A DNA stretch of 64,000 nt from an uncultured Actinomycetota bacterium (lineage in GTDB: Bacteria > Actinomycetota > Actinomycetes > Streptosporangiales > Streptosporangiaceae): contig CAWJLP010000005.1 in assembly GCA_963843745.1 (NCBI GenBank), positions 214,014-278,013 on the forward strand, in the 5' to 3' direction. The notes below the pieces were generated by a model. It was not told the origin of the DNA. It ran no database searches and saw nothing but the letters and a program-made list of their open reading frames with translations. Positions within the stretch are counted from its first letter, which is position 1. The number at the start of each line of letters is the position of its first letter. The translations under genes and the position numbers were made by a program. Shown piece after piece: positions 23,728 through 33,778 of this stretch.

Positions 23728-24458
23728 CTAGCTGGTGGGACCGAAGCGCTCGGTCTTGACCGCCGCGGGGTCGTGGCCGGCGGCCACCAGCAGGTTGGCG
23801 GCGGCCTCCACGAAACCGGTCGGGCCGCAGACGAAGACGGCCGGCTTGCTGTCCGGCGGCCAGCCCGCCGCGGCGAGGATGTCCGTGTTGATGCGGCCGA
23901 CGGGCATGCCCGCGGGCGCGGCCCGGGTGTACAGGTAGGTGAGGGTGAGGGGTGAAACACGGGCCCGTTCTGACAACTCGGGACCGTACAGGATGTCGGC
24001 GGGAGAGCGGACCGAATAGATCAGCCGGACGGGAACCTTGTTCGTGTTCGCGCGGATCATGGCCATCAGCGGGACCACGCCGCTGCCGCCGGCCACCAGC
24101 AGGACCGGCGCCGGCGAGGACGGGTCCCAGACGAACCAGCCGCCGATCGGGCCGCGCAGCTCCAGCTTGTCGCCGGGCTGCAGATCCTCGGTCAGGTACG
24201 GGGAGACCTCGCCGTCGCCGATGCGCTGCACGGTGAGCTCGAGGCGGGTCCCGTCAGCCGCGGAGGCGACCGAGTACGAGCGCTCCACGGAGTAGCCGTC
24301 CTCGGCGGTCAGCTTCACGTCCACGTGCTGGCCGGCCAGGTGACCGGGCCAGCCGGGCACGTCGAGCACGAGGGTGCGCGCGGTCGCGGTCTCGTCTTTG
24401 GTCGCGTCGACGGTGGCGACGCGCCAGATCAGTCGCCCTGGTACCGCTGCTCGCGCCA
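23728..24458 (-). CDS. FNR-like ferredoxin reductase-type FAD/NAD(P)-binding oxidoreductase
   Basis: Lies within ORF 23728..24786; the likely GTG start is at 24458 (MARAAVPGRLIWRVATVD). The motifs are RSYSVAS (FAD RxYS), VLLVAGGSGVVPLMAM (NAD) and a CGP near the C-terminus. Confidence 0.8.
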
Positions 24459-25028
24459 CGGATCGCCGTAGTCGTTGTAGCCGAGCTGCTCCCAGAAGCC
24501 CTGCTGGTCGTGGAGCATCAGGGTTATGCCGTTGACCCACTTCGCGGACTTCCAGAAGTACAGGTGCGGCACCAGCATGCGGATCGGCCCGCCGTGCTCC
24601 GGGTGCAGCGGCTCGCCCTCGTACTCGTAGACCACCCACGCCTTCCCGTCGCGTATGTCGGGCAGCGGCAGGTTCGTGGTGTAGCCGCCGTAGGAGTGGG
24701 CCATCACGTAGCCGGCGTTCGTCTGGACGCCGTCGAGCAGTGTGTCGAGCGAGACACCGCGCCAGTGCGTGTCCAGCTTGGACCACTTCGTCACGCAGTG
24801 GATGTCGGTGGTGACGTCCACCTGCGGCAGGGCCATGAGCTGCTGCCAGTTCCAGCTGGCGGCCTTGTCACCGGTCTCGGTGGTGATCGTGAACTGCCAC
24901 GTGTCGGTGCTCACACGGGGCGTCGGGCCGGCGGACAGCACCGGGTAGCCGCGCTCCAGGTACTGGCCGGGAGGCAGCCGCACGTCGCCGCCCCTGCGGC
25001 CGTGGAAGCCGCGGGAGATAATGCTCAT
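24429..25028 (-). CDS. Sulfite-oxidase-like molybdopterin oxidoreductase (small YedY/MsrP-like catalytic domain)
   Basis: LPPGQYLERGYPVLSAGPTPRV...DIHCVTKWSKLDTHWRGVSL...PEHGGPIRMLVPHLYFWKSAKWV is the typical oxidoreductase molybdopterin-binding fold signature. Confidence 0.8.
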   Translation of the reverse strand: MSIISRGFHGRRGGDVRLPPGQYLERGYPVLSAGPTPRVSTDTWQFTITTETGDKAASWNWQQLMALPQVDVTTDIHCVTKWSKLDTHWRGVSLDTLLDGVQTNAGYVMAHSYGGYTTNLPLPDIRDGKAWVVYEYEGEPLHPEHGGPIRMLVPHLYFWKSAKWVNGITLMLHDQQGFWEQLGYNDYGDPWREQRYQGD

Positions 25029-25378
25029 GGGTTGAGCTTAGCCCGCCAGTCCCGCGGCACCCGGCCGGCCGGGCCGGGGACCGGCTGGTCCATCGGGTGG
25101 TGCTCCGGCGGGGCGAGCGCCGGGCCGGATTCGTAGAAGTCCTCGTCCGGGTAGGACCAGAACCAGACCTCGCCAGGCTCAAAGCTGCGGATCACCGGGT
25201 GACCGGTCTCCTTCGCGTGGTTGGTCGCGTGCTGGGACGGCGAGTTGTCGCAGCAGCCGATGTGGCCGCACTGCGCGCACCGGCGCAGGTGCAGCCACCA
25301 GCCTTGAGCCGCTTCGCACTCGACGCAGCCGGTGCCGCTCGGCGGCACGGACGGGTCGACGCCCTGCATCTCGGTCAT
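25025..25378 (-). CDS. UBP-type zinc-finger protein
   Basis: The Cys/His pattern is CVECEAAQGWWLHLRRCAQCGHIGCCDNSPSQHATNHAKETGHPV. Confidence 0.8.
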   Translation of the reverse strand: MTEMQGVDPSVPPSGTGCVECEAAQGWWLHLRRCAQCGHIGCCDNSPSQHATNHAKETGHPVIRSFEPGEVWFWSYPDEDFYESGPALAPPEHHPMDQPVPGPAGRVPRDWRAKLNP

Positions 25379-25381
25379 CGG

Positions 25382-26875
25382 TTACGCCTCCTGCGGTTGC
25401 TGTTGCGGCTGTTCCGGCTGTTCTTGCTCGATGGGGAGCCGGACCTGGAAGCGGGTGTCGCCGGGCCGCGACTCGACCCGCAGGTCGCCGTGGTGCTTTT
25501 TCACCACGATCCGCCAGGCGATGTCCAGGCCGAGCCCGGTGCCCTCGCCGACCGGCTTGGTGGTGAAGAACGGCTCGAAGATCCGGTCCTTGATGTCGTC
25601 AGGGATGCCGGGGCCGTTATCGCCCACCTCGACGAGCACGTTGCCGTCGTCGCGCGCCGTGCGGATGGTCAGCGTGCCCGCCCCGCCCATCGCCTGCACC
25701 GCGTTCTCGATCAGGTTCGTCCACACCTGGTTGAGCTCGGCGGCGTAGGCCGGGATCGGCGGCAGCGAGCGGTCGTAGTCCTTGACGATGTGCACTCCCT
25801 TGCCGATCTTCGCTGCCATCATCAGCAGGGTGCTGTCCAGCAGGTCGTGCACGTCGATGACCTGGAACGGCGCCCGGTCCAGCTGCGAGTACTGCTTGGC
25901 GGCGCCGACCAGGGTGGAGACCCGCGTCGTCGCGTCCTCGATCTCGTTCATCAGCAGTTCGGTCTCGATGGTGTAGTTCAGCCAGCGCAGCGCGGGCTCG
26001 AGCATGCCGTCACCAACCGTGTCCCGCACCTCGTCCAGCCACTGGGCGTCCAGGCCCGCCTGGACGAACGTGGGGGCGATCTGCCAGCCGTCGTGGCAGC
26101 CGTGGTCCTCCAGCCAGTCGCTGAGCTCGTCTTCCGCGTCGGACGTCTCGAGCGGGCTGAGCTTCGGCGCCTTGGAGACCTTCTCCACCGCCCGCGTCTG
26201 CAGGTCGATGATGGATTCCAGGCTCGCGCGCTCGAACTTGCCCGCCGCTATCATCCGCAGCTTGCCGCGCATCCCCGAGACCCGCTCGCGCAGGCTGGCG
26301 GTCGCCCGCACCGCCGCGGCGGCGGGGTTGTTGAGCTCGTGGGTCAGGCCCGCGGTCAGCGAGCCGAGCGCGAGCAGCCGCTCCCGCTGGCCGACCGCCT
26401 CGCGGGTCCGCTGGCCGCCGAAGAACAGCCCCTCGAGCAGGTGCACCGCCATCGGGAACCACTCGGACATGATCTGCGCGAAGCACTGCGCGCCGAGGAC
26501 GTAGAACGTGGACGGCTCGGTGACCCGCAGCGAGTTGGGGTAGACCTGCGGCACCCGGTCCCCGAGGTAGGCCTGGAACGAGCCGGCGTAGACGCCCCGC
26601 TGGCTGGTCCTGCTGATCTCAACGTCGTCCCCGCCGACGTTCCGCGACAGCACCACGGTGCCCTCGATGAGCACGTACAGGCACTCGGCGGGGTCGCCCT
26701 CGCGGAACACCTGGCCGGGCTCGATGATCTCCACGTGGCCTTCGGCGCAGAGCCGTTGCAGCTGCTCGTCCGTGAGCTTCTCGAACAGGAACAGCGTGCG
26801 CAGTTCCGCCGGGTTGCACTGGGTGATCGTGACGCGGGGGGCGTCGGGGACGCCGGTGGCTTCGGTGGCGGTCAT
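25382..26875 (-). CDS. Sensor histidine kinase with an N-terminal cyclic-nucleotide-binding domain (soluble)
   Basis: It has a cNMP-binding-like N-terminus (LFLFEKLTDEQLQRLCAEGHVEIIEPGQVFREGDPAECLYVLIEGTV), an H-box (LTHELNNPAAA), an N-box (NLIENAVQA) and a G-box (DNGPGIP...GTGLGLDIA). There are no TM segments. Confidence 0.88.
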   Translation of the reverse strand: MTATEATGVPDAPRVTITQCNPAELRTLFLFEKLTDEQLQRLCAEGHVEIIEPGQVFREGDPAECLYVLIEGTVVLSRNVGGDDVEISRTSQRGVYAGSFQAYLGDRVPQVYPNSLRVTEPSTFYVLGAQCFAQIMSEWFPMAVHLLEGLFFGGQRTREAVGQRERLLALGSLTAGLTHELNNPAAAAVRATASLRERVSGMRGKLRMIAAGKFERASLESIIDLQTRAVEKVSKAPKLSPLETSDAEDELSDWLEDHGCHDGWQIAPTFVQAGLDAQWLDEVRDTVGDGMLEPALRWLNYTIETELLMNEIEDATTRVSTLVGAAKQYSQLDRAPFQVIDVHDLLDSTLLMMAAKIGKGVHIVKDYDRSLPPIPAYAAELNQVWTNLIENAVQAMGGAGTLTIRTARDDGNVLVEVGDNGPGIPDDIKDRIFEPFFTTKPVGEGTGLGLDIAWRIVVKKHHGDLRVESRPGDTRFQVRLPIEQEQPEQPQQQPQEA

Positions 26876-28596
26876 TTTGGCTCCAGGTACCTGTGCACGA
26901 ACATCACTGCCATGGCTCCCTCTCCCACGGCGGACGCGACCCGCTTGGCGGACTCGGCCCGCACGTCACCCACGGCGAAGACCCCGGGGACGTTTGTCTC
27001 CAGGTGGAACGGCTGCCGGTCCAGCGGCCATTCGGCGAGGTGATCCTCGGTCAGGTCCAGCCCGGCCAGGACGAACCCGCGCTCGTCGCGGGCCACCACG
27101 CCGTCGAGCCAGCCGGTCCTCGGCGCCGCTCCGATGAATATGAACAACTGTCCGGCGTCGACTGTTTCCAGGCTCCCGGTGTTCAGGTCGCGCAGCTCGA
27201 GCCGTTCCAGGTGGCCGTCGCCCTGCACCTCGGCGACCTCGGTGCAGGTGCGGACGGTGATCTGGTCGATGTCCGCGATCTGCTGGATGAGGTAGTACGA
27301 CATCGACTGCTCGAGCGAGCCCGCGCGCACCAGCATCGTCACCGACCTCGCGTACCTGGCCAGGTAGACGGCGGCCTGCCCGGCCGAGTTCGCGCCGCCG
27401 ACCACGTACACGTCCTGGTCCTTGCAGCCCTCGGCCTCGGTGAGCGCCGCGCCGTAGAAGACGCCGGCGTTCTGCATCTGGTCGCAGCCCGGCGCGTTCA
27501 GCTGCCGGTAGGAGACGCCGGTGGCCAGGATGATCGACTTCGCGTCGACCGCGGACCCGTCGTTGAGCCGCACGGTCCTGGCCGGGCCGTTGATCTCCAG
27601 CCCGGTCGCCTCGCGGGTGGTCAGCAGCTCGGCGCCGAACTTGACGGCCTGCCGCCGAGCCCGGTCGGTGAGCTGGCCGCCGGACACCCCTTCAGGGAAG
27701 CCGAGGTAGTTCTCGATCCGCGAGCTCTGCCCCGCCTGCCCGCCGGTCGCGAACTTCTCGACGAGCAGCGTGCGCAGCCCCTCGGAGGCGCCGTAGACGG
27801 CGGCGCCGAGCCCGCCGGGCCCGCCGCCGACCACGACCAGGTCGTAGAAGTCGCGCTCCGGGGTGGTCGCCAGCCCCACCTTCGCCGCGACCTCGGCGCT
27901 GCTCGGCATGATGAGGGCCTCACCGTCGACCGTGATCAGCACCGGCAGGTGGTGGCCGTCCGTGCCGGCGGCATCGAGCAGGCGCTGTCCTTCCGGCTCG
28001 TCGCTCGAGAACCAGTGGTAAGGCACCTGGTTGCGGGCCAGGAAGTCGCGCAGCTGCGACGACGGCGCCGACCAGCGGTGCCCGACCAGCTTGGCCTCCC
28101 TGACCGGCTTCCTTTCCTCCCGGCGCCAGGCGCCGAGCAGTTCGTCCACCGGCGGGTAGAGCTTCTCCTCCGGCGGGTCCCAGGGCTTGAGCAGGTAGTA
28201 GTCGAGGTCGACGATGTTGATCGCGTCGATCGCCGCGTTGGTGTCCGCGTACGCGGTCAGCAGCACCCGTTTGGCGAACGGGTAGACGTCCATCGCCCGC
28301 TCGAGGAACTCGATGCCGTTCATGCCCGGCATCCGGTAGTCCGCCAGGATGACCGCGACCTGGTCGCCGCGGAGCTTCATCTGCCTCAGCGCGTCGAGGG
28401 CGTCCTGGCCCGACTCGGCGCGCACGATCCTGTTGTTCTCCCCGTACCGCCGCCGCAGGTCGCGCGCGACCGCGCGGGACACCTGCGGATCGTCGTCCAC
28501 GGTCACGATGACCGGGCGTGTCTCCTGGCTTGGCTGGCTGGGGGCCTGGGCGGCCGCGTCCGCCGCGGTCGTCGGTTCCGTGACCATGCCCCCCAT
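26872..28596 (-). CDS. Response-regulator receiver domain fused to a thioredoxin-reductase-like FAD/NAD(P) flavoprotein
   Basis: Lies within ORF 26872..29163; the likely start is ATG 28596 or 28587. REC: VIVTVDDDPQV...VILADYRMPGMNG...LLKP. Flavoprotein: DLVVVGGGPGGLGAA...VYVVGGANSAGQAA...GVFAVGDV. The position of the TrxR CATC disulfide reads YGAALTE. Confidence 0.88.
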   Translation of the reverse strand: MGGMVTEPTTAADAAAQAPSQPSQETRPVIVTVDDDPQVSRAVARDLRRRYGENNRIVRAESGQDALDALRQMKLRGDQVAVILADYRMPGMNGIEFLERAMDVYPFAKRVLLTAYADTNAAIDAINIVDLDYYLLKPWDPPEEKLYPPVDELLGAWRREERKPVREAKLVGHRWSAPSSQLRDFLARNQVPYHWFSSDEPEGQRLLDAAGTDGHHLPVLITVDGEALIMPSSAEVAAKVGLATTPERDFYDLVVVGGGPGGLGAAVYGASEGLRTLLVEKFATGGQAGQSSRIENYLGFPEGVSGGQLTDRARRQAVKFGAELLTTREATGLEINGPARTVRLNDGSAVDAKSIILATGVSYRQLNAPGCDQMQNAGVFYGAALTEAEGCKDQDVYVVGGANSAGQAAVYLARYARSVTMLVRAGSLEQSMSYYLIQQIADIDQITVRTCTEVAEVQGDGHLERLELRDLNTGSLETVDAGQLFIFIGAAPRTGWLDGVVARDERGFVLAGLDLTEDHLAEWPLDRQPFHLETNVPGVFAVGDVRAESAKRVASAVGEGAMAVMFVHRYLEPK

Positions 28597-28613: not shown

Positions 28614-29534
28614 CTAATATCCCCGGGGGCCGATGACGTTCCGCAGCGGTTCGCCAGCGGCGTAGCGGGCCAGCTGCTCCCTGACGACCGCGTAGGCGCG
28701 GTCGCGCGCCCCGGTGATGGCGCCGCCGACGTGCGGGGTGAGCAGCAAGCCGGGCGCCTGCCACAGCGGGTGGCCCGGCGGCAGCGGCTCGGGGTCCGTG
28801 ACGTCGAGCGCGGCCGTGATGCGCTGGGCGGTGAGCTCCTTCAGCAGCGCGTCGGTGTCCACGATCGGGCCGCGGGCCGCGTTCACCAGCAGCGCGCCGT
28901 CCTTCATGCTGCGCAGGAACTTCGCGTCGACGAGGTGCCTGGTCTCGTCGGTGACCGGGAGGAGTATGACGACGACGTCCGCCTGCTCGAGCGCCTCGTG
29001 CAGTTCCGTGATGGGCCGCACGCCTTCCCTGGCGTGCCGCGCGATCCGCTCGATCGTCACCTCCCAGCCGGCCAGCCGCCGCTCGACCGCGGCGCCGATC
29101 GAGCCGTAGCCGACGATCAGCACGCGCTTGCCGGCCACGGATTCGCTGACCGCGAAATCCCACTCCCCGGCTTCCTGCGCCCTGACGAAGCGAGGGAAGT
29201 TCCTGATGCTGGCCACGATGAGGCCCACCGTCAACTCCGCGGTCGCCGTGTCGTGCGCGCCGCGCGCGTTGCAGAGGGTGATGCCCGCGGGGATGTGGCC
29301 GACGATCTGCTCGGCGCCGGCGGACAAGAGCTGGATGACCTTCAGCTTGGGCAGGCCGGTGACCGCCGACAGCAGGGCCGGCCGCGAGCCCATGGGCAGG
29401 ACGATGAACTCGACCTCGTCCTTGCTGCCCGGCAGCGGCTCACCGCCGGCCCAGACGTCGGCTTCGATGCCGTCGGGCAGGGGTTGCAGGGATGCTACGG
29501 TCTCCGGTGGATCGGGCAGCCATACCCGCGTCAC
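28614..29534 (-). CDS. D-isomer-specific 2-hydroxyacid dehydrogenase family protein
   Basis: The motifs are an NAD-binding VLIVGYGSIGAAV, ...NAARG..VD... and the catalytic LLTPHVGG region. Confidence 0.85.
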   Translation of the reverse strand: MTRVWLPDPPETVASLQPLPDGIEADVWAGGEPLPGSKDEVEFIVLPMGSRPALLSAVTGLPKLKVIQLLSAGAEQIVGHIPAGITLCNARGAHDTATAELTVGLIVASIRNFPRFVRAQEAGEWDFAVSESVAGKRVLIVGYGSIGAAVERRLAGWEVTIERIARHAREGVRPITELHEALEQADVVVILLPVTDETRHLVDAKFLRSMKDGALLVNAARGPIVDTDALLKELTAQRITAALDVTDPEPLPPGHPLWQAPGLLLTPHVGGAITGARDRAYAVVREQLARYAAGEPLRNVIGPRGY

Positions 29535-29584
29535 GTCGCCTCCGCCTGATAGCTCGCTAGGCCCGTTGTTTGCCGGCTGCCAGT

Positions 29585-29926
29585 TTAGAGGCCGAACTCG
29601 GCCCGCCTGCCGTCCGGTACCAGGTCCGCGTATTCGGGGTGCTTGCGGATCCAGGAACGGATGTACGGGCAGGAGGGCAGCACGGCCAGGTCCCGCTTCC
29701 TGGCGTCGTCGAGGCTGAACCTGGCCAGGTGCGTGGCCAGCCCGGCGCCCTGGAACCGGGGATCGATCTCCGTGTGGATCAGGGTGATCTGCTGGCCGCG
29801 CAGGTGGTACCTGACGAAACCCGCGAGTTCGCCGCCAAGGTGCAGCTCGTACCTGGACTCCGCGGGGTTGTCGGTGGCAACCGGGGCGCTGTCCGCCGCG
29901 TCCCCGGCGGCGTCCGCTACCGCCAC
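29585..29926 (-). CDS. Small GNAT-fold acetyltransferase (YjdJ/acetyltransf_CG-like)
   Basis: Lies within ORF 29585..30046; the likely GTG start is at 29926. The core is RYELHLGGELAGFVRYHLRGQQITLIHTEIDPRFQGAGLATHLARFSLDDARKRDLAVLPSCPYI. Confidence 0.7.
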   Translation of the reverse strand: MAVADAAGDAADSAPVATDNPAESRYELHLGGELAGFVRYHLRGQQITLIHTEIDPRFQGAGLATHLARFSLDDARKRDLAVLPSCPYIRSWIRKHPEYADLVPDGRRAEFGL

Positions 29927-30399
29927 GCGCCCGCGGGAACGCGCGCTCCGGCGCCGACCGGGAGCGCCTCCTGCGCGACGCTGATCACGACCACCGGGCA
30001 CGGGGCGCGGCGCAGGCACGCGCGGATCACCGGGCCAGGCGACCATCCCGCGCCCGGCATGTCGCCAGCGGTCCCGAGGACCAGCATGTCCGCCCCCGCG
30101 CAGCTCTCGAGCAGCACGCGCGCGGTGAGCCCGTCGGCTACCTCGGTGCGGACCAGCACGCCCGCCGCGAGCTCAGGGAGCACTGACTTCCACATCATGT
30201 CCGCGTCCACGTCGCCCGGGTAACCCTGGCCGGGCATCGCGTAGCTGGCCATGCTGTAATACGGCGCCTCCCGGACATAGATCGCGTGCACTTCCGCGCG
30301 GCGCAGCGCTGCCTCACGGCAAGCCCAGCGGAGCGCGGCGGCGGATTCAGCAGAGCCGTCAACTCCGACCACAATGCGCCGCACCGCAGAAACCGACAT
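29917..30399 (-). CDS. Universal stress protein (UspA family)
   Basis: ATG 30399 follows AGGAGGGG. The motifs are RIVVGVDGSAESAAALRWA...MLVLGTAG...GPVIRACLRRAPCPVVVI. Confidence 0.85.
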   Translation of the reverse strand: MSVSAVRRIVVGVDGSAESAAALRWACREAALRRAEVHAIYVREAPYYSMASYAMPGQGYPGDVDADMMWKSVLPELAAGVLVRTEVADGLTARVLLESCAGADMLVLGTAGDMPGAGWSPGPVIRACLRRAPCPVVVISVAQEALPVGAGARVPAGAWR

Positions 30400-30694
30400 G
30401 CCGGAACCCCTCCTGCCGATAGCCGCCTGACGCTGCCTGTCCGCTGTCCCCACCGCGGTTAGTCAGGGGTTTCGTTCGTTTTTGTAGCCTCCCAAGGACC
30501 GATGGTAAACCGGGGACCGGGATAGCACGAGACCCCCCCGGGGTTATTTTCCCAGGTGGCCACCGGGCAATCGAGCGCTATGTAACGACTCCATGCACAT
30601 TGCGTTAAATATGATTTCGGTCTCCTGAACGGGCCCGTGGCGTCTCCCGGCCGCCATGGTTCGCCCGCGGCGGATGTCCCCGGTTAGCCCGCTG

Positions 30695-33600
30695 CTAGCC
30701 CGCGGTGACCGTGACGTGGCTGCCGTGGTGGCCCTTGCGGACGTGCACCTGGGCGGGGATGCGCTGGCGGAGTTCGGCGACGTGGCTGACGATGCCCACG
30801 ATCCGGCCGCCGGCCCGCAGGCCGTCGAGGACGTTCATCACCTCGTCGAGCGTGTCCTCGTCCAGGGTGCCGAAGCCCTCGTCCACGAACAGCGCCTCCA
30901 TCGGGGTGCCCGCCGCCTCGGCGGTCACCACGTCGGCAAGGCCGAGCGCGAGCGCGAGGCTGGCCAGGAACGTCTCGCCGCCGGACAGCGTGCTCGTGTC
31001 GCGGTCGACTCCGGTCCACGCGTCGCAGGCCAGCAGCCCGAGCCCCGCCTTGCCGCCGCCGCGGCGGGTGTCGGTGTGCACCAGGGTGAAACGGCCCGCG
31101 GTCATGGTCCGCAGGCGCTCGCTCGCGGCCTTGGCGACCTCCTCGAGGCGTGCGGCGAGGACGAAGCTGGACAGGGTCATGCGGTACTGGTTGGCGCCGA
31201 GGCCGGCGGCGAGGTCGGCCAGCTGGCGCGCCTCCTCGGCGCGCTCGCGGAGCGGCGCGAGGGCGGCGAGCGCGTCCTCGAGCTGCGGCTTGAGCCCGGC
31301 GAGTTGCACGGCGGTGTGGCTGGCGGTGCCGTGCGCGCTGTTGGCGGCGTCGTGCTCCCGCTGCGCCTGGCCGGCCGCTTCCGTCGTCTCGGCGACGGGC
31401 GCGGGCGGGTCGAGCTCGACGTCAAGTGCGGGGTCGGCGAGCAGCACGGCGACGGCCTCGGCTTCCGCCTCGTGCCGGGCGACGCGGTCGGCCGCGTCGC
31501 GGCGCCACGCGGCGTCCTTGAACGCGGCCCTGGCGGCGTCGGGTGCGCCGAAACCCGCCTCGGCCGTGGCCTTGACCGCGCGTTCGGCCGCCTCGTGCGC
31601 CTCGGCGGCGGCGCGCGCGGCCTCGTCGGCCGCGTCGGCGGCCGCGGCGAGCGACTCGGCGAGCAGGCGGGTGCTCCGTACGGCCGCGTCCAGGTCGGGG
31701 GCGGCGCCGAGCTGGGCGCGGATCTTGGCCCGGTGCTCCCCGGCGCGGGCGGCCGCGCCCGCGGCCTCCGCATGGGCGGCGGCGTGCTTCTCGGTCAGCT
31801 CGGCCAGCCTGGCGTTACCGGCAGCGATGGCGGCGTCGAGGGCCTCCAGCTCGCGCTGGCGGACAGGGTGGGTCCCGGCATGCGCTGCGAGGGCGGCGGC
31901 GTCCGTTTCGAGCCGGCCAGCGTCGGCCGCCGCCTGGCGGGCGGCGGCGGCGAGGGCCGCGGAGCCGGCGACCTGGGCGGCCTCCGCCGAGAACGGGCCA
32001 GCCGGCAGCAGGGCGAGCGCGCCGTCGTCGGTGGCGAGCGAGCCGGGAAAGCCCGCGTCCGCCAGGCGCTGCGCGAGGTCGCCGATCCGCGCGTCGGCCG
32101 CTGCCACGTGCCTGCCGAGCTCGTCGGCCTCGGCCGACGCCGCTTCCGCGCGCACGGTGGCGGCGTCCTCCTGGTCGCGGCTGACCGGCTCGAAGGTGGG
32201 CTCGACCGGGTCCGGGTGATCGAGCGAGCCGCACACCGGGCACGGCGAGCCGTCGGTCATCGTCGCTGCCAGTTCGGCGCGCATGCCATCGATGCGCGCC
32301 TCCCGCACGGCGCTGGCCTCCTCGCGGCGGGTCACGGCCCGCTCGCGGGCGCCCAGGTGCGCCTCGTGCACCCGGTCCCTGTCGGCACGCTCGGCCGCCA
32401 GGGCGGCCGAGTCGGCCGCGACGCGGCGGGCGGTATCGGCCGCGGCCTGCGCGGCCGGCAGCGCGGCAACCGCTTGGTCGGCGTCGTCGCGGGCCTGGGC
32501 CGCCGCCGGGCGGGCGGCCCGGTGGCCGGCCGCCGCGGCCTGCGCCGCGGATAGCGCCAGCTCGAACTCGGCCACGTTGTCGAGCGCCGCCGCCGCGTTC
32601 TCCTCTTCGTCCGCGGCCTGGCTGGCGTCGGCGCGCAGGCCGTCCAGCATGCCGAGCCGGGACTGCTGCTCCTGTCCCGCGGCCCGCAGCGCCCCCGGGC
32701 CGGCGTCCGGCGCCGCGGGGCTGTCGTCAGGGATCGCCGCGCGAGCCTGCTCCTCGGCGCGGCATGCCGCCGCGGCCGCGGCCGCGGCACGGCCGGCCTC
32801 GGCGAGCACCGGGGCGACCTCGGCGGCGCGCGAAGCGGCGTCGGCCGCGGCGCGCAGCAGGTCGGTCTCACCGGCGGCGGCTTCGAGTTCCGCTTGCCGG
32901 TGGAGGGTGTCCCGGCGGCGGCGCTGGCGCTCGGCGAGCTGCTCGGCCAGGCTCTTGGCGGCCAGTGCCGTGTCGAGCTGGGCCTTGGCCGCCGCGACGA
33001 CCGTCGCGGCGGCGTCCCGTTCGGCGGCGGCGGAGACCGCCAGGTCCGCCACCCACACCGCCTGCCACGGGTCAGGCGCGCCGGCCGGCGCGTCCATCGT
33101 CTCGGGGACCGCGACGCCGGCGGCCTGGGCGACCTGGGCCACCAGGAGATTCACCCGGTCGGCGGCGACCGTCACCTCGGCGGTCGTGGCGCGGCGGCGC
33201 TCTGCCAGCCAGTCTTCGACGGCGCGGAACCTGTCGGTGCCGAACAGCTTCTGCAGCAGCCGCGCCCTGGCCTCGGCGTCGGCGTGCAGGAACTGCGCGA
33301 ACTGGCCCTGCGGGAGGAGCACTACCTGGAAGAACTGCTCGGCGGACATGCCCATCAGGTCCGCGATCTCGGTGTCGGCCTCGCCGATGCGGGTGGATTT
33401 GACCTCCCAGTCCCCGGCCGGGGTCAGCTCGGCGAGCAGCACCGACGCCTGCTCCTTGGTCACGCCGGTGCCCGACTTCTTCGGGCGCTCCTGTTCCGGC
33501 TTGCGGGTGATCCGCAGTCGCCGGCCGCCGATCGTGGCCTCGAGCTCCACCTCGGTACGGACGCCGGCCGGCGCGTGGTCGGACCTGAGCCTGCGCGTCT

Positions 33601-33778
33601 TGCCGCGCTCCCCGGGCACCCGGCCGTAGAGCGCGAACGCGATCGCGTCGAGCAGCGTCGTCTTCCCCGCGCCCGTCTCGCCGTGCAGGAGGAACAGGCC
33701 CTCGAGGTCGTCGAAGCTGACCTCTTCGGTGGCGGCGAACGCGCCGAAGGCCTGGACGCGGAGCCGGTGCGGGCGCAT
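30695..33778 (-). CDS. sbcC: SbcC-type SMC-family ATPase (exonuclease SbcCD subunit C)
   Basis: It has an N-terminal Walker A (HGETGAGKTTLLDAIAFALYG), a very long Ala-rich coiled coil with a zinc hook (CPVCGS), a C-terminal signature (LSGGETF) and Walker B (LFVDEGFG). Confidence 0.92.
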   Translation of the reverse strand: MRPHRLRVQAFGAFAATEEVSFDDLEGLFLLHGETGAGKTTLLDAIAFALYGRVPGERGKTRRLRSDHAPAGVRTEVELEATIGGRRLRITRKPEQERPKKSGTGVTKEQASVLLAELTPAGDWEVKSTRIGEADTEIADLMGMSAEQFFQVVLLPQGQFAQFLHADAEARARLLQKLFGTDRFRAVEDWLAERRRATTAEVTVAADRVNLLVAQVAQAAGVAVPETMDAPAGAPDPWQAVWVADLAVSAAAERDAAATVVAAAKAQLDTALAAKSLAEQLAERQRRRRDTLHRQAELEAAAGETDLLRAAADAASRAAEVAPVLAEAGRAAAAAAAACRAEEQARAAIPDDSPAAPDAGPGALRAAGQEQQSRLGMLDGLRADASQAADEEENAAAALDNVAEFELALSAAQAAAAGHRAARPAAAQARDDADQAVAALPAAQAAADTARRVAADSAALAAERADRDRVHEAHLGARERAVTRREEASAVREARIDGMRAELAATMTDGSPCPVCGSLDHPDPVEPTFEPVSRDQEDAATVRAEAASAEADELGRHVAAADARIGDLAQRLADAGFPGSLATDDGALALLPAGPFSAEAAQVAGSAALAAAARQAAADAGRLETDAAALAAHAGTHPVRQRELEALDAAIAAGNARLAELTEKHAAAHAEAAGAAARAGEHRAKIRAQLGAAPDLDAAVRSTRLLAESLAAAADAADEAARAAAEAHEAAERAVKATAEAGFGAPDAARAAFKDAAWRRDAADRVARHEAEAEAVAVLLADPALDVELDPPAPVAETTEAAGQAQREHDAANSAHGTASHTAVQLAGLKPQLEDALAALAPLRERAEEARQLADLAAGLGANQYRMTLSSFVLAARLEEVAKAASERLRTMTAGRFTLVHTDTRRGGGKAGLGLLACDAWTGVDRDTSTLSGGETFLASLALALGLADVVTAEAAGTPMEALFVDEGFGTLDEDTLDEVMNVLDGLRAGGRIVGIVSHVAELRQRIPAQVHVRKGHHGSHVTVTAG

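Follow-up and report, generated by a model that had tools for sequence, protein, structure and literature searches.

The gene at positions 26872 to 28596 of the window (the whole stretch analyzed, 64,000 nucleotides of contig CAWJLP010000005.1 in assembly GCA_963843745.1, from an uncultured member of the Streptosporangiaceae) codes for a response regulator in which a receiver (REC) domain is joined to a glutaredoxin-like domain and a flavoprotein module related to low-Mr thioredoxin reductase (TrxR). Judged from its sequence, the output has lost the redox disulfides of both of these parts, and the best reading, given a probability of about 0.6, is that the protein works as an NAD(P)H flavin oxidoreductase that is gated by phosphorylation, passes its electrons to an acceptor other than a disulfide, and derives from a mycoredoxin-TrxR fusion. 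A preliminary description of the gene, made from its letters alone, had reported the receiver, the TrxR-like module, and the missing TrxR cysteines; the open reading frame (ORF) and all of the strings that it quoted are present as given. The gene and the relevant parts of its product, in amino acids (aa), are as follows.

26872..28596, minus strand: regulator gene, REC plus glutaredoxin-like plus TrxR-like flavoprotein, 574 aa
28171..28509, minus strand: REC domain, aa 30-142 (Pfam PF00072, E 4.5e-14)
27877..28101, minus strand: glutaredoxin/mycoredoxin-like Trx-fold domain, aa ~166-240 (family profile and AlphaFold2 [AF2] model)
28060..28074, minus strand: W175-S-A-P-S179 at the glutaredoxin W-C-x-x-C position, both Cys replaced by Ser
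26875..27852, minus strand: low-Mr TrxR-like two-dinucleotide-fold module, aa 249-574 (Pyr_redox_2, E 1.1e-31)
27811..27828, minus strand: FAD-binding GxGxxG (GGGPGG), aa 257-262 (sequence motif)
27424..27465, minus strand: G378-V-F-Y-G-A-A-L-T-E-A-E-G-C391, replacing G-V-S-x-C-A-T-C-D-G
27370..27399, minus strand: second dinucleotide (NAD(P)H) motif G-G-A-N-S-A-G-Q-A-A, aa 400-409
27289..27333, minus strand: L-V-R-A-G-S-L-E-Q-S-M-S-Y-Y-L, aa 422-436, replacing the TrxR HRRxxxR 2'-phosphate site
27016..27066, minus strand: family-specific insertion of ~17 aa, aa 511-527, with conserved W523 and R527

The flavoprotein module is TrxR-like by both sequence and predicted fold, as the preliminary description had proposed. 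Pfam assigns Response_reg to residues 30-142 and Pyr_redox_2 to residues 251-560, and the best phmmer matches among solved structures are the TrxRs of Mycobacterium smegmatis (5uth, E 1.5e-45) and Mycobacterium tuberculosis (2a87, E 1.3e-43), with ~31% identity to low-Mr TrxR overall. The module shares with these enzymes (TrxB, EC 1.8.1.9; 2a87, 5uth, and 5mh4) the two-domain FAD/NAD(P)H fold (TM score of 0.95 to Lactococcus lactis TrxR), the GxGxxG, GGQ, and GD motifs (the last within GVFAVGDV, aa 538-545), the second Rossmann motif, and an acidic residue in the Asp139 column, Asp139 being the TrxR acid catalyst in Escherichia coli numbering. It differs in having no CxxC, a one-residue insertion, a new Y-G-A...E-A motif, only one Arg of HRRxxxR, and the extra 17-aa insertion, as well as REC and glutaredoxin-like domains at its N terminus. 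The insertion is present in the family and missing from TrxR and from a Cys-containing relative (L077, described below), and a conserved P529 lies just beyond it. The HRRxxxR site for the NADPH 2'-phosphate is replaced, with R424 the sole Arg kept and the family motif M-S-x-Y-L following it.

Where TrxR has its redox disulfide, the protein reads GVFYGAALTE (aa 378-387). The phmmer alignment sets GVFYGAALTEAEGC against GVS(T)-CATCDGFFF of the solved TrxRs with one extra residue in the query, and because of this one-residue insertion the two Cys columns are occupied by A383 and T386 rather than by G382 and L385, the columns named in the preliminary description. There is no Cys in either register, and the conclusion that both TrxR cysteines are absent is therefore unchanged. 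E387 falls in the column of the acid catalyst. The conclusions on these columns rest on the phmmer and L077 alignments. TIGR01292, the thioredoxin-disulfide reductase equivalog, matches end to end with a score of 215.2 bits, below its curated cutoff of 343.45. With both disulfides removed and the reductase site rebuilt, a protein of this sequence is not expected to work as a thioredoxin-disulfide reductase, in agreement with the preliminary description, which had argued that it is not a canonical one.

The Cys loss is not a peculiarity of this gene. A search of 1.84 billion cluster representatives yields 3693 proteins at E<=1e-30 (canonical TrxR-type relatives included), and the best 150 of these all have the Y-G motif together with the middle domain and the flavoprotein module. 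Members are found in the Actinomycetota, Chloroflexota, Cyanobacteria, Pseudomonadota, Acidobacteriota, Bacteroidota, Gemmatimonadota, Verrucomicrobiota, and Myxococcota. Conservation was scored in two sets, 102 well-aligned representatives (<50% mutual identity) and 77 genomic loci that span many phyla; in both the CxxC region reads G-x-G-V-[FY]-Y-G-[AS]-x-x-x-E-A, and the Cys pair is absent family-wide at the TrxR site, extending to the family what had been reported for a single protein. Across 60 diverse sequences, 37-54% identical to the query, Y381, G382, G400, N403, G257, G259, P260, G262, and G543-D544 are invariant, and E387, A388, R424, and S404-A409 are at least 90% conserved. Because the replacement motif is conserved across at least nine phyla, the sequences point to a remodelled site under selection, not to decay.

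These conservation data effectively refute the idea that the gene is a decaying relic, i.e., a TrxR paralogue drifting to loss of function. Its catalytic residues are indeed lost and its TIGR01292 score is well under the cutoff, but the ORF is intact (574 codons plus a stop), thousands of members in at least nine phyla have invariant motifs of their own, the operon with a kinase is conserved, and the AF2 model is of high confidence. The family is very large, uncharacterized, and widely mis-annotated, and within it this gene is an ordinary member. Its closest homologues (97% identity) are in metagenome-assembled genomes (MAGs) of Trebonia sp., order Streptosporangiales, and these near-identical proteins are named "thioredoxin reductase (NADPH)" by JGI and "FAD-dependent oxidoreductase" by NCBI; the same motifs recur in two loci from Streptomyces, L002 and L003, at 71-72% identity to the query. 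Thousands of soil and aquatic bacterial genes are labelled thioredoxin reductase, and redox-network reconstructions that count the members of this family as TrxR are wrong, because they lack the chemistry that defines it.

The second missing disulfide is in the middle domain, for which single-sequence searches of Pfam and the PDB return nothing meaningful. A profile of 43 family members matches M. tuberculosis mycoredoxin-1 (Rv3198.1, 2lqo) with an E value of 7e-9, with weaker matches to glutaredoxins, NrdH, and GST N-domains, and AF2 predicts with high confidence a beta-alpha-beta-alpha-beta-beta-alpha topology for residues 168-239. The cis-Pro loop of glutaredoxins is represented by P218 (at least 90% conserved), and at the N terminus of helix 1, where glutaredoxins carry a catalytic CxxC or CxxS, the query has WSAPS; the family W-S-x-x-S aligns on WCGYC of mycoredoxin and on WCPDC of L077. 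The preliminary description overlooked this Cys-less domain, along with a catalogued REC-TrxB architecture and the existing CxxC-less enzymes of the ferredoxin-NAD(P)+ reductase (FNR) type, both considered below.

A likely source of this arrangement is illustrated by L077 (8001-9161 in the Dehalococcoidia MAG OZ220672.1), which retains both CxxC motifs and is one of 80 related loci, from at least nine phyla, that were sampled for gene neighbourhoods. Its protein is collinear with query residues 169-574 (39% identity, E 1e-86), with WCPDC opposite WSAPS and CATCD opposite AALTE, and its N-terminal part, with which the query middle domain aligns, is confirmed by Pfam as a glutaredoxin domain (PF00462, E 3e-11). 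It scores 342 bits with TIGR01292, near the threshold, and 79 bits with the mycoredoxin model TIGR02200, and it has in common with the family two signatures absent from ordinary TrxRs, GGQAG..RIENY.GFPEG and GD.RA.S.K.VASAVGEGA. L077 is thus likely to be of the ancestral type, a putative mycoredoxin-TrxR disulfide relay. Both it and AhpF (4o5q and 1hyu), which is more distant, resemble the query in having a Trx-fold domain collinear with a TrxR-like module, but both keep their redox disulfides and have no sensor domain, whereas the query has neither disulfide and has a receiver. The query is not itself an AhpF, as it has a single Trx-fold, its modules are Cys-less, and its TIGR03140 score is 166 bits against a cutoff of 503.

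The receiver is complete, as first described. The acidic pocket (D34-D36), the phospho-acceptor D86 (nucleotides [nt] 28339-28341, within VILADYRMPGMNG), T114, and K137 are all intact, and these residues are invariant among close relatives. With the acidic pocket, phospho-acceptor Asp, conserved Thr/Ser, and Lys that mark receivers, the protein is by its sequence a receiver-containing response regulator with a predicted enzymatic output (the "REC-TrxB" type). Degenerate receivers are present in about half of the diverse REC-type representatives, with D86 kept in 28/59, T114 in 11/59, and K137 in 28/59; examples are seen in the alignment of representatives P0127-P0264 and at loci L039-L041, L055, L059, and L063-L064. 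Because the members concerned have no adjacent kinase, these look like pseudo-receivers, and control by phosphorylation therefore does not extend to the whole family.

A putative cognate kinase is encoded immediately downstream.

25382..26875, minus strand: soluble histidine kinase with an N-terminal CAP/cNMP-binding-like domain, an H-box (THELNNP), and HATPase_c

The kinase start and the regulator stop overlap by 4 bp (ATGA), and a kinase homologue adjoins the flavoprotein gene in 42 of the 80 loci. Kinase adjacency follows receiver integrity closely, with a kinase next to 39 of 40 loci with canonical D86/T114/K137 and to 2 of 37 others (both weak matches; Fisher p 2e-18), and for this reason the proposed phosphorylation gating of the output is well supported. 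Compared with an E. coli CRP reference, the CAP-like domain of the kinase (residues ~56-137) has lost, in the clade of the window, both the Glu and the Arg-Ser of the cyclic-phosphate cassette; since the Glu and Arg that bind the cyclic phosphate are lacking, the ligand may not be cAMP, or indeed any cyclic nucleotide. Among relatives without a receiver, a cNMP_binding domain is fused directly to the flavoprotein in 7/7 tested. One class of sensor is thus coupled to the flavoprotein in two ways, by direct fusion or via a kinase and receiver, which points to the flavoprotein as the output under regulation. One relative combines REC, the flavoprotein, and a C-terminal cNMP_binding domain, and two have a SnoaL-like domain with REC and the flavoprotein (P0142, P0145, and P0124). 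The family therefore offers a natural experiment, one flavoprotein core driven by a receiver, a CAP-like domain, or both, and this variety of sensors opens the allosteric control of a two-domain flavoenzyme to direct testing.

An AF2 model built with 60 diverse sequences has a predicted local distance difference test score (pLDDT) of 93.1 and a predicted TM score (pTM) of 0.86; an earlier model from 54 close homologues (80-97% identity) had a pLDDT of 60 and was discarded. Foldseek ranks full-length E. coli AhpF first, with an alignment of 436 columns that takes in both the Trx-fold and the reductase. The best superpositions are on flavin-reducing (FR) TrxRs, from L. lactis (5mh4, TM 0.95) and Thermoplasma acidophilum (3cty, TM 0.94), compared with a TM of 0.64 for 5mjk, which is the L. 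lactis enzyme in its flavin-oxidizing form. This is only suggestive of an FR-like conformation, in which NAD(P)H would meet the flavin and the former disulfide helix would be exposed.

A mechanism consistent with these features can be outlined. The ancestor would have passed electrons from NAD(P)H to FAD, then to the Cys-Cys of the reductase, and then to the Cys-Cys of the redoxin. Both disulfides would subsequently have been removed, the reductase site rebuilt as the conserved Y-G-A...E-A motif, and the conserved insertion added. In the present protein NAD(P)H would deliver a hydride to FAD, and the flavin would hand its electrons directly to a non-disulfide acceptor, as it does in TrxR-like ferredoxin/flavodoxin reductases. 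The kinase and regulator would form a cytoplasmic two-component system, the CAP-like domain of the kinase sensing an intracellular ligand and the kinase phosphorylating D86. The receiver would act by way of helix 142-161 and of the redoxin-like domain, now a Cys-less adaptor, on the geometry between the NAD(P)H and FAD domains, so as to permit or block turnover. The analysis shows the domain make-up, the two Cys losses, the conserved cofactor motifs, the kinase linkage, and the exchange of sensor domains; from these we infer that the flavin turns over and gives up its electrons directly, how the gating is transmitted, and what kind of acceptor is used.

The same features could instead describe a pseudo-enzyme that binds FAD and/or NAD(P)H without turnover and signals by conformation, binding a partner (the kinase or a small zf-UBP protein encoded nearby) according to its phosphorylation and redox state. 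This has perhaps one-third the credence of an active oxidoreductase and would fit the loss of both catalytic disulfides, the eroded site for the NADPH 2'-phosphate, the single FR-like state of the AF2 model, the pseudo-receivers of many members, and the fact that the sole conserved neighbour other than the kinase is a small, non-enzymatic zinc-finger protein. However, the site that took the place of CxxC is under strong conservation (Y381 never varies, and E387 occupies the acid-catalyst column) and has the look of a functioning active site, and the two dinucleotide motifs are tightly constrained as well. Furthermore, TrxR-like FNRs lack CxxC and yet are fully catalytic, with electrons leaving the flavin directly (PMC10294844, PMC4626851).

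TrxR-like ferredoxin/flavodoxin-NAD(P)+ reductases (YumC/TRLF) thus share with the query a TrxR fold that has no CxxC, and, like the query's family, they have historically been mis-annotated as thioredoxin reductase. It is nevertheless improbable that the protein is simply one of these with a receiver attached. The FNRs in the PDB are detectable (3ab1, E 9e-18; 3lzw, E 6e-12), but at E 1e-12 to 1e-18 they are far weaker matches than TrxR (E 1e-45) or AhpF (E 1e-39), and they have a C-terminal extension and no glutaredoxin-like or sensor domain. The query ends after the last TrxR helix and leaves ~30 C-terminal FNR residues unmatched (the alignment covers 8-329 of 360 in 3ab1); the extension carries an aromatic residue that stacks on the flavin. 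Since the closest Cys-containing relative is a glutaredoxin-TrxR fusion, the sequences place the Cys loss in this family as an event independent of the FNR lineage. Other divergent relatives of low-Mr TrxR among the PDB matches are the cyanobacterial DDOR (5jri) and DTR (5j60) and the clostridial FFTR (6gnc and 6gnd). These have altered electron donors, keep CxxC, and lose the NADPH motifs, and the query family shows the opposite pattern.

The combination of REC with thioredoxin reductase has been catalogued before and called a "Mycobacterium-like combination" (PMC5847659). A TrxB-type regulator, SCO7298, is listed with the kinase SCO7297 for Streptomyces coelicolor (PMC9739842), another is listed in a thermophilic cyanobacterium (PMC9953108), and one study has counted sco7298 as the thioredoxin reductase gene trxB3 and reported its induction by sulfane sulfur (PMC9952706); SCO7298 is a likely counterpart of the query gene. 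These "REC-TrxB" censuses (Galperin; P2CS; SCO7298-SCO7297) describe the same architecture and the same pairing of response regulator with histidine kinase, but they give the architecture only and mention neither the missing cysteines nor the glutaredoxin-like domain, and the missing cysteines of REC-TrxB proteins are not remarked on in the literature searched. The architecture is therefore already known, and the doubly Cys-less, sensor-gated derivative of a redoxin-TrxR is a new variant.

The preliminary description had named APGCDQ and EGCKDQ as a pair that could supply the active-site cysteines, and this pair was rejected, as C371 (APGCDQ) is not conserved and C391 (EGCKDQ) is single and distal; no alternative pair for the active site is present among the cysteines of the query. 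C371 is Cys in 4% of the representatives; among the loci the figure is 10% where the receiver is canonical and 0% elsewhere. C391 (codon 27424-27426, minus strand) is at the C-terminal end of helix 384-391 in the AF2 secondary structure, eight residues past the first Cys column and five past the second. In TrxR the N terminus of the CxxC helix faces the flavin, and by analogy C391 would point away from it. A thiol-disulfide reductase that uses C391 with a Cys of the other protomer, the zf-UBP protein, or a low-molecular-weight thiol, comparable to the single-Cys CoA-disulfide reductase, is accordingly a long shot, somewhat less probable still than FNR membership. It draws on how often this position is Cys (80% of loci in the canonical-receiver clade, 62% outside it), on the Cys-rich zf-UBP protein, and on the reported sulfane-sulfur induction of the putative counterpart sco7298. 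Against it, the share of Cys at position 391 falls to 24% in the more divergent representative set, and many members have Tyr (the commonest replacement), Thr, Met, or Val instead; its predicted position lies beyond the second Cys column; C371 is unconserved; and the glutaredoxin-like domain too is without both of its Cys.

Several observations weigh against a phosphorylation-gated flavin oxidoreductase. The NAD(P)H site is altered, with one of the three 2'-phosphate arginines left and the third glycine of GxGxxA an Ala in the query, and the use of the nucleotide is therefore putative. D86 is kept in fewer than half of the diverse REC-type representatives (the 28/59 given above), and Y381, E387, and C391 are placed relative to the flavin by alignment and secondary structure. 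The literature searched holds no biochemistry for any family member, only census listings and one expression study, and linkage to the zf-UBP gene is limited to 24 of the 80 loci. The semi-conserved single C391 is a further feature to which no role is assigned.

Three further genes follow the kinase on the same strand.

25025..25378, minus strand: small zf-UBP zinc-finger protein, 117 aa (PF02148, E 7e-16)
24429..25028, minus strand: molybdopterin oxidoreductase domain protein, 199 aa; ATGA overlap with the zf-UBP gene; lineage-specific
23728..24432, minus strand: FNR-like reductase (FAD_binding_6 and NAD_binding_1), closing the local operon; lineage-specific; start not fixed

Homologues of the zf-UBP protein, in those 24 loci, lie beside flavoproteins of both the receiver and the CAP type and mostly on the same strand; examples are L001, L002, L003, L005, L006, L045, L046, L052, L054, and L078. 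Among solved structures the zf-UBP protein is closest to 2ida, a hypothetical protein from bacteria (E 2e-24), and next to the ZnF-UBP of eukaryotic USP5. As a Cys/His metalloprotein it is only a candidate for the partner of the flavoprotein, and a broader proposal that includes it, of a new class of electron-transfer enzyme, a signal-gated, thiol-free flavin switch that arose from a mycoredoxin-TrxR relay, is set by a receiver or a fused CAP-like domain, and has zf-UBP as its partner, is speculative and should be regarded as rather unlikely as a whole. If true, bacteria of at least nine phyla would route electrons from NAD(P)H under post-translational control by a ligand, and bacterial zf-UBP proteins, for which the linkage in any case provides a genomic handle, would gain a first function.

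The molybdopterin oxidoreductase, the FNR-like reductase, and a 2-hydroxyacid dehydrogenase upstream of the regulator were rejected as conserved partners. All three are absent from the 80 loci bar one weak match and are found only in close (Trebonia-like) relatives; the order of the molybdopterin and FNR-like genes is repeated in an 82%-identical relative (L081) and not in the 80 other loci. The upstream segment on the same strand (28614-30453, minus) contains the D-2-hydroxyacid dehydrogenase gene, 17 nt before the annotated start of the regulator, a small acetyltransferase-like ORF, and a universal-stress-protein-like ORF, an order also repeated in L081, and farther upstream (30695-33778, minus) is an SbcC/Rad50-like ATPase of 1027 aa. 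The G+C content of the window is ~71%. The true start of the regulator is probably the second ATG (M4, nt 28587), which is favoured because a GGGGG stretch precedes it and because the near-identical homologues are 571 aa long.

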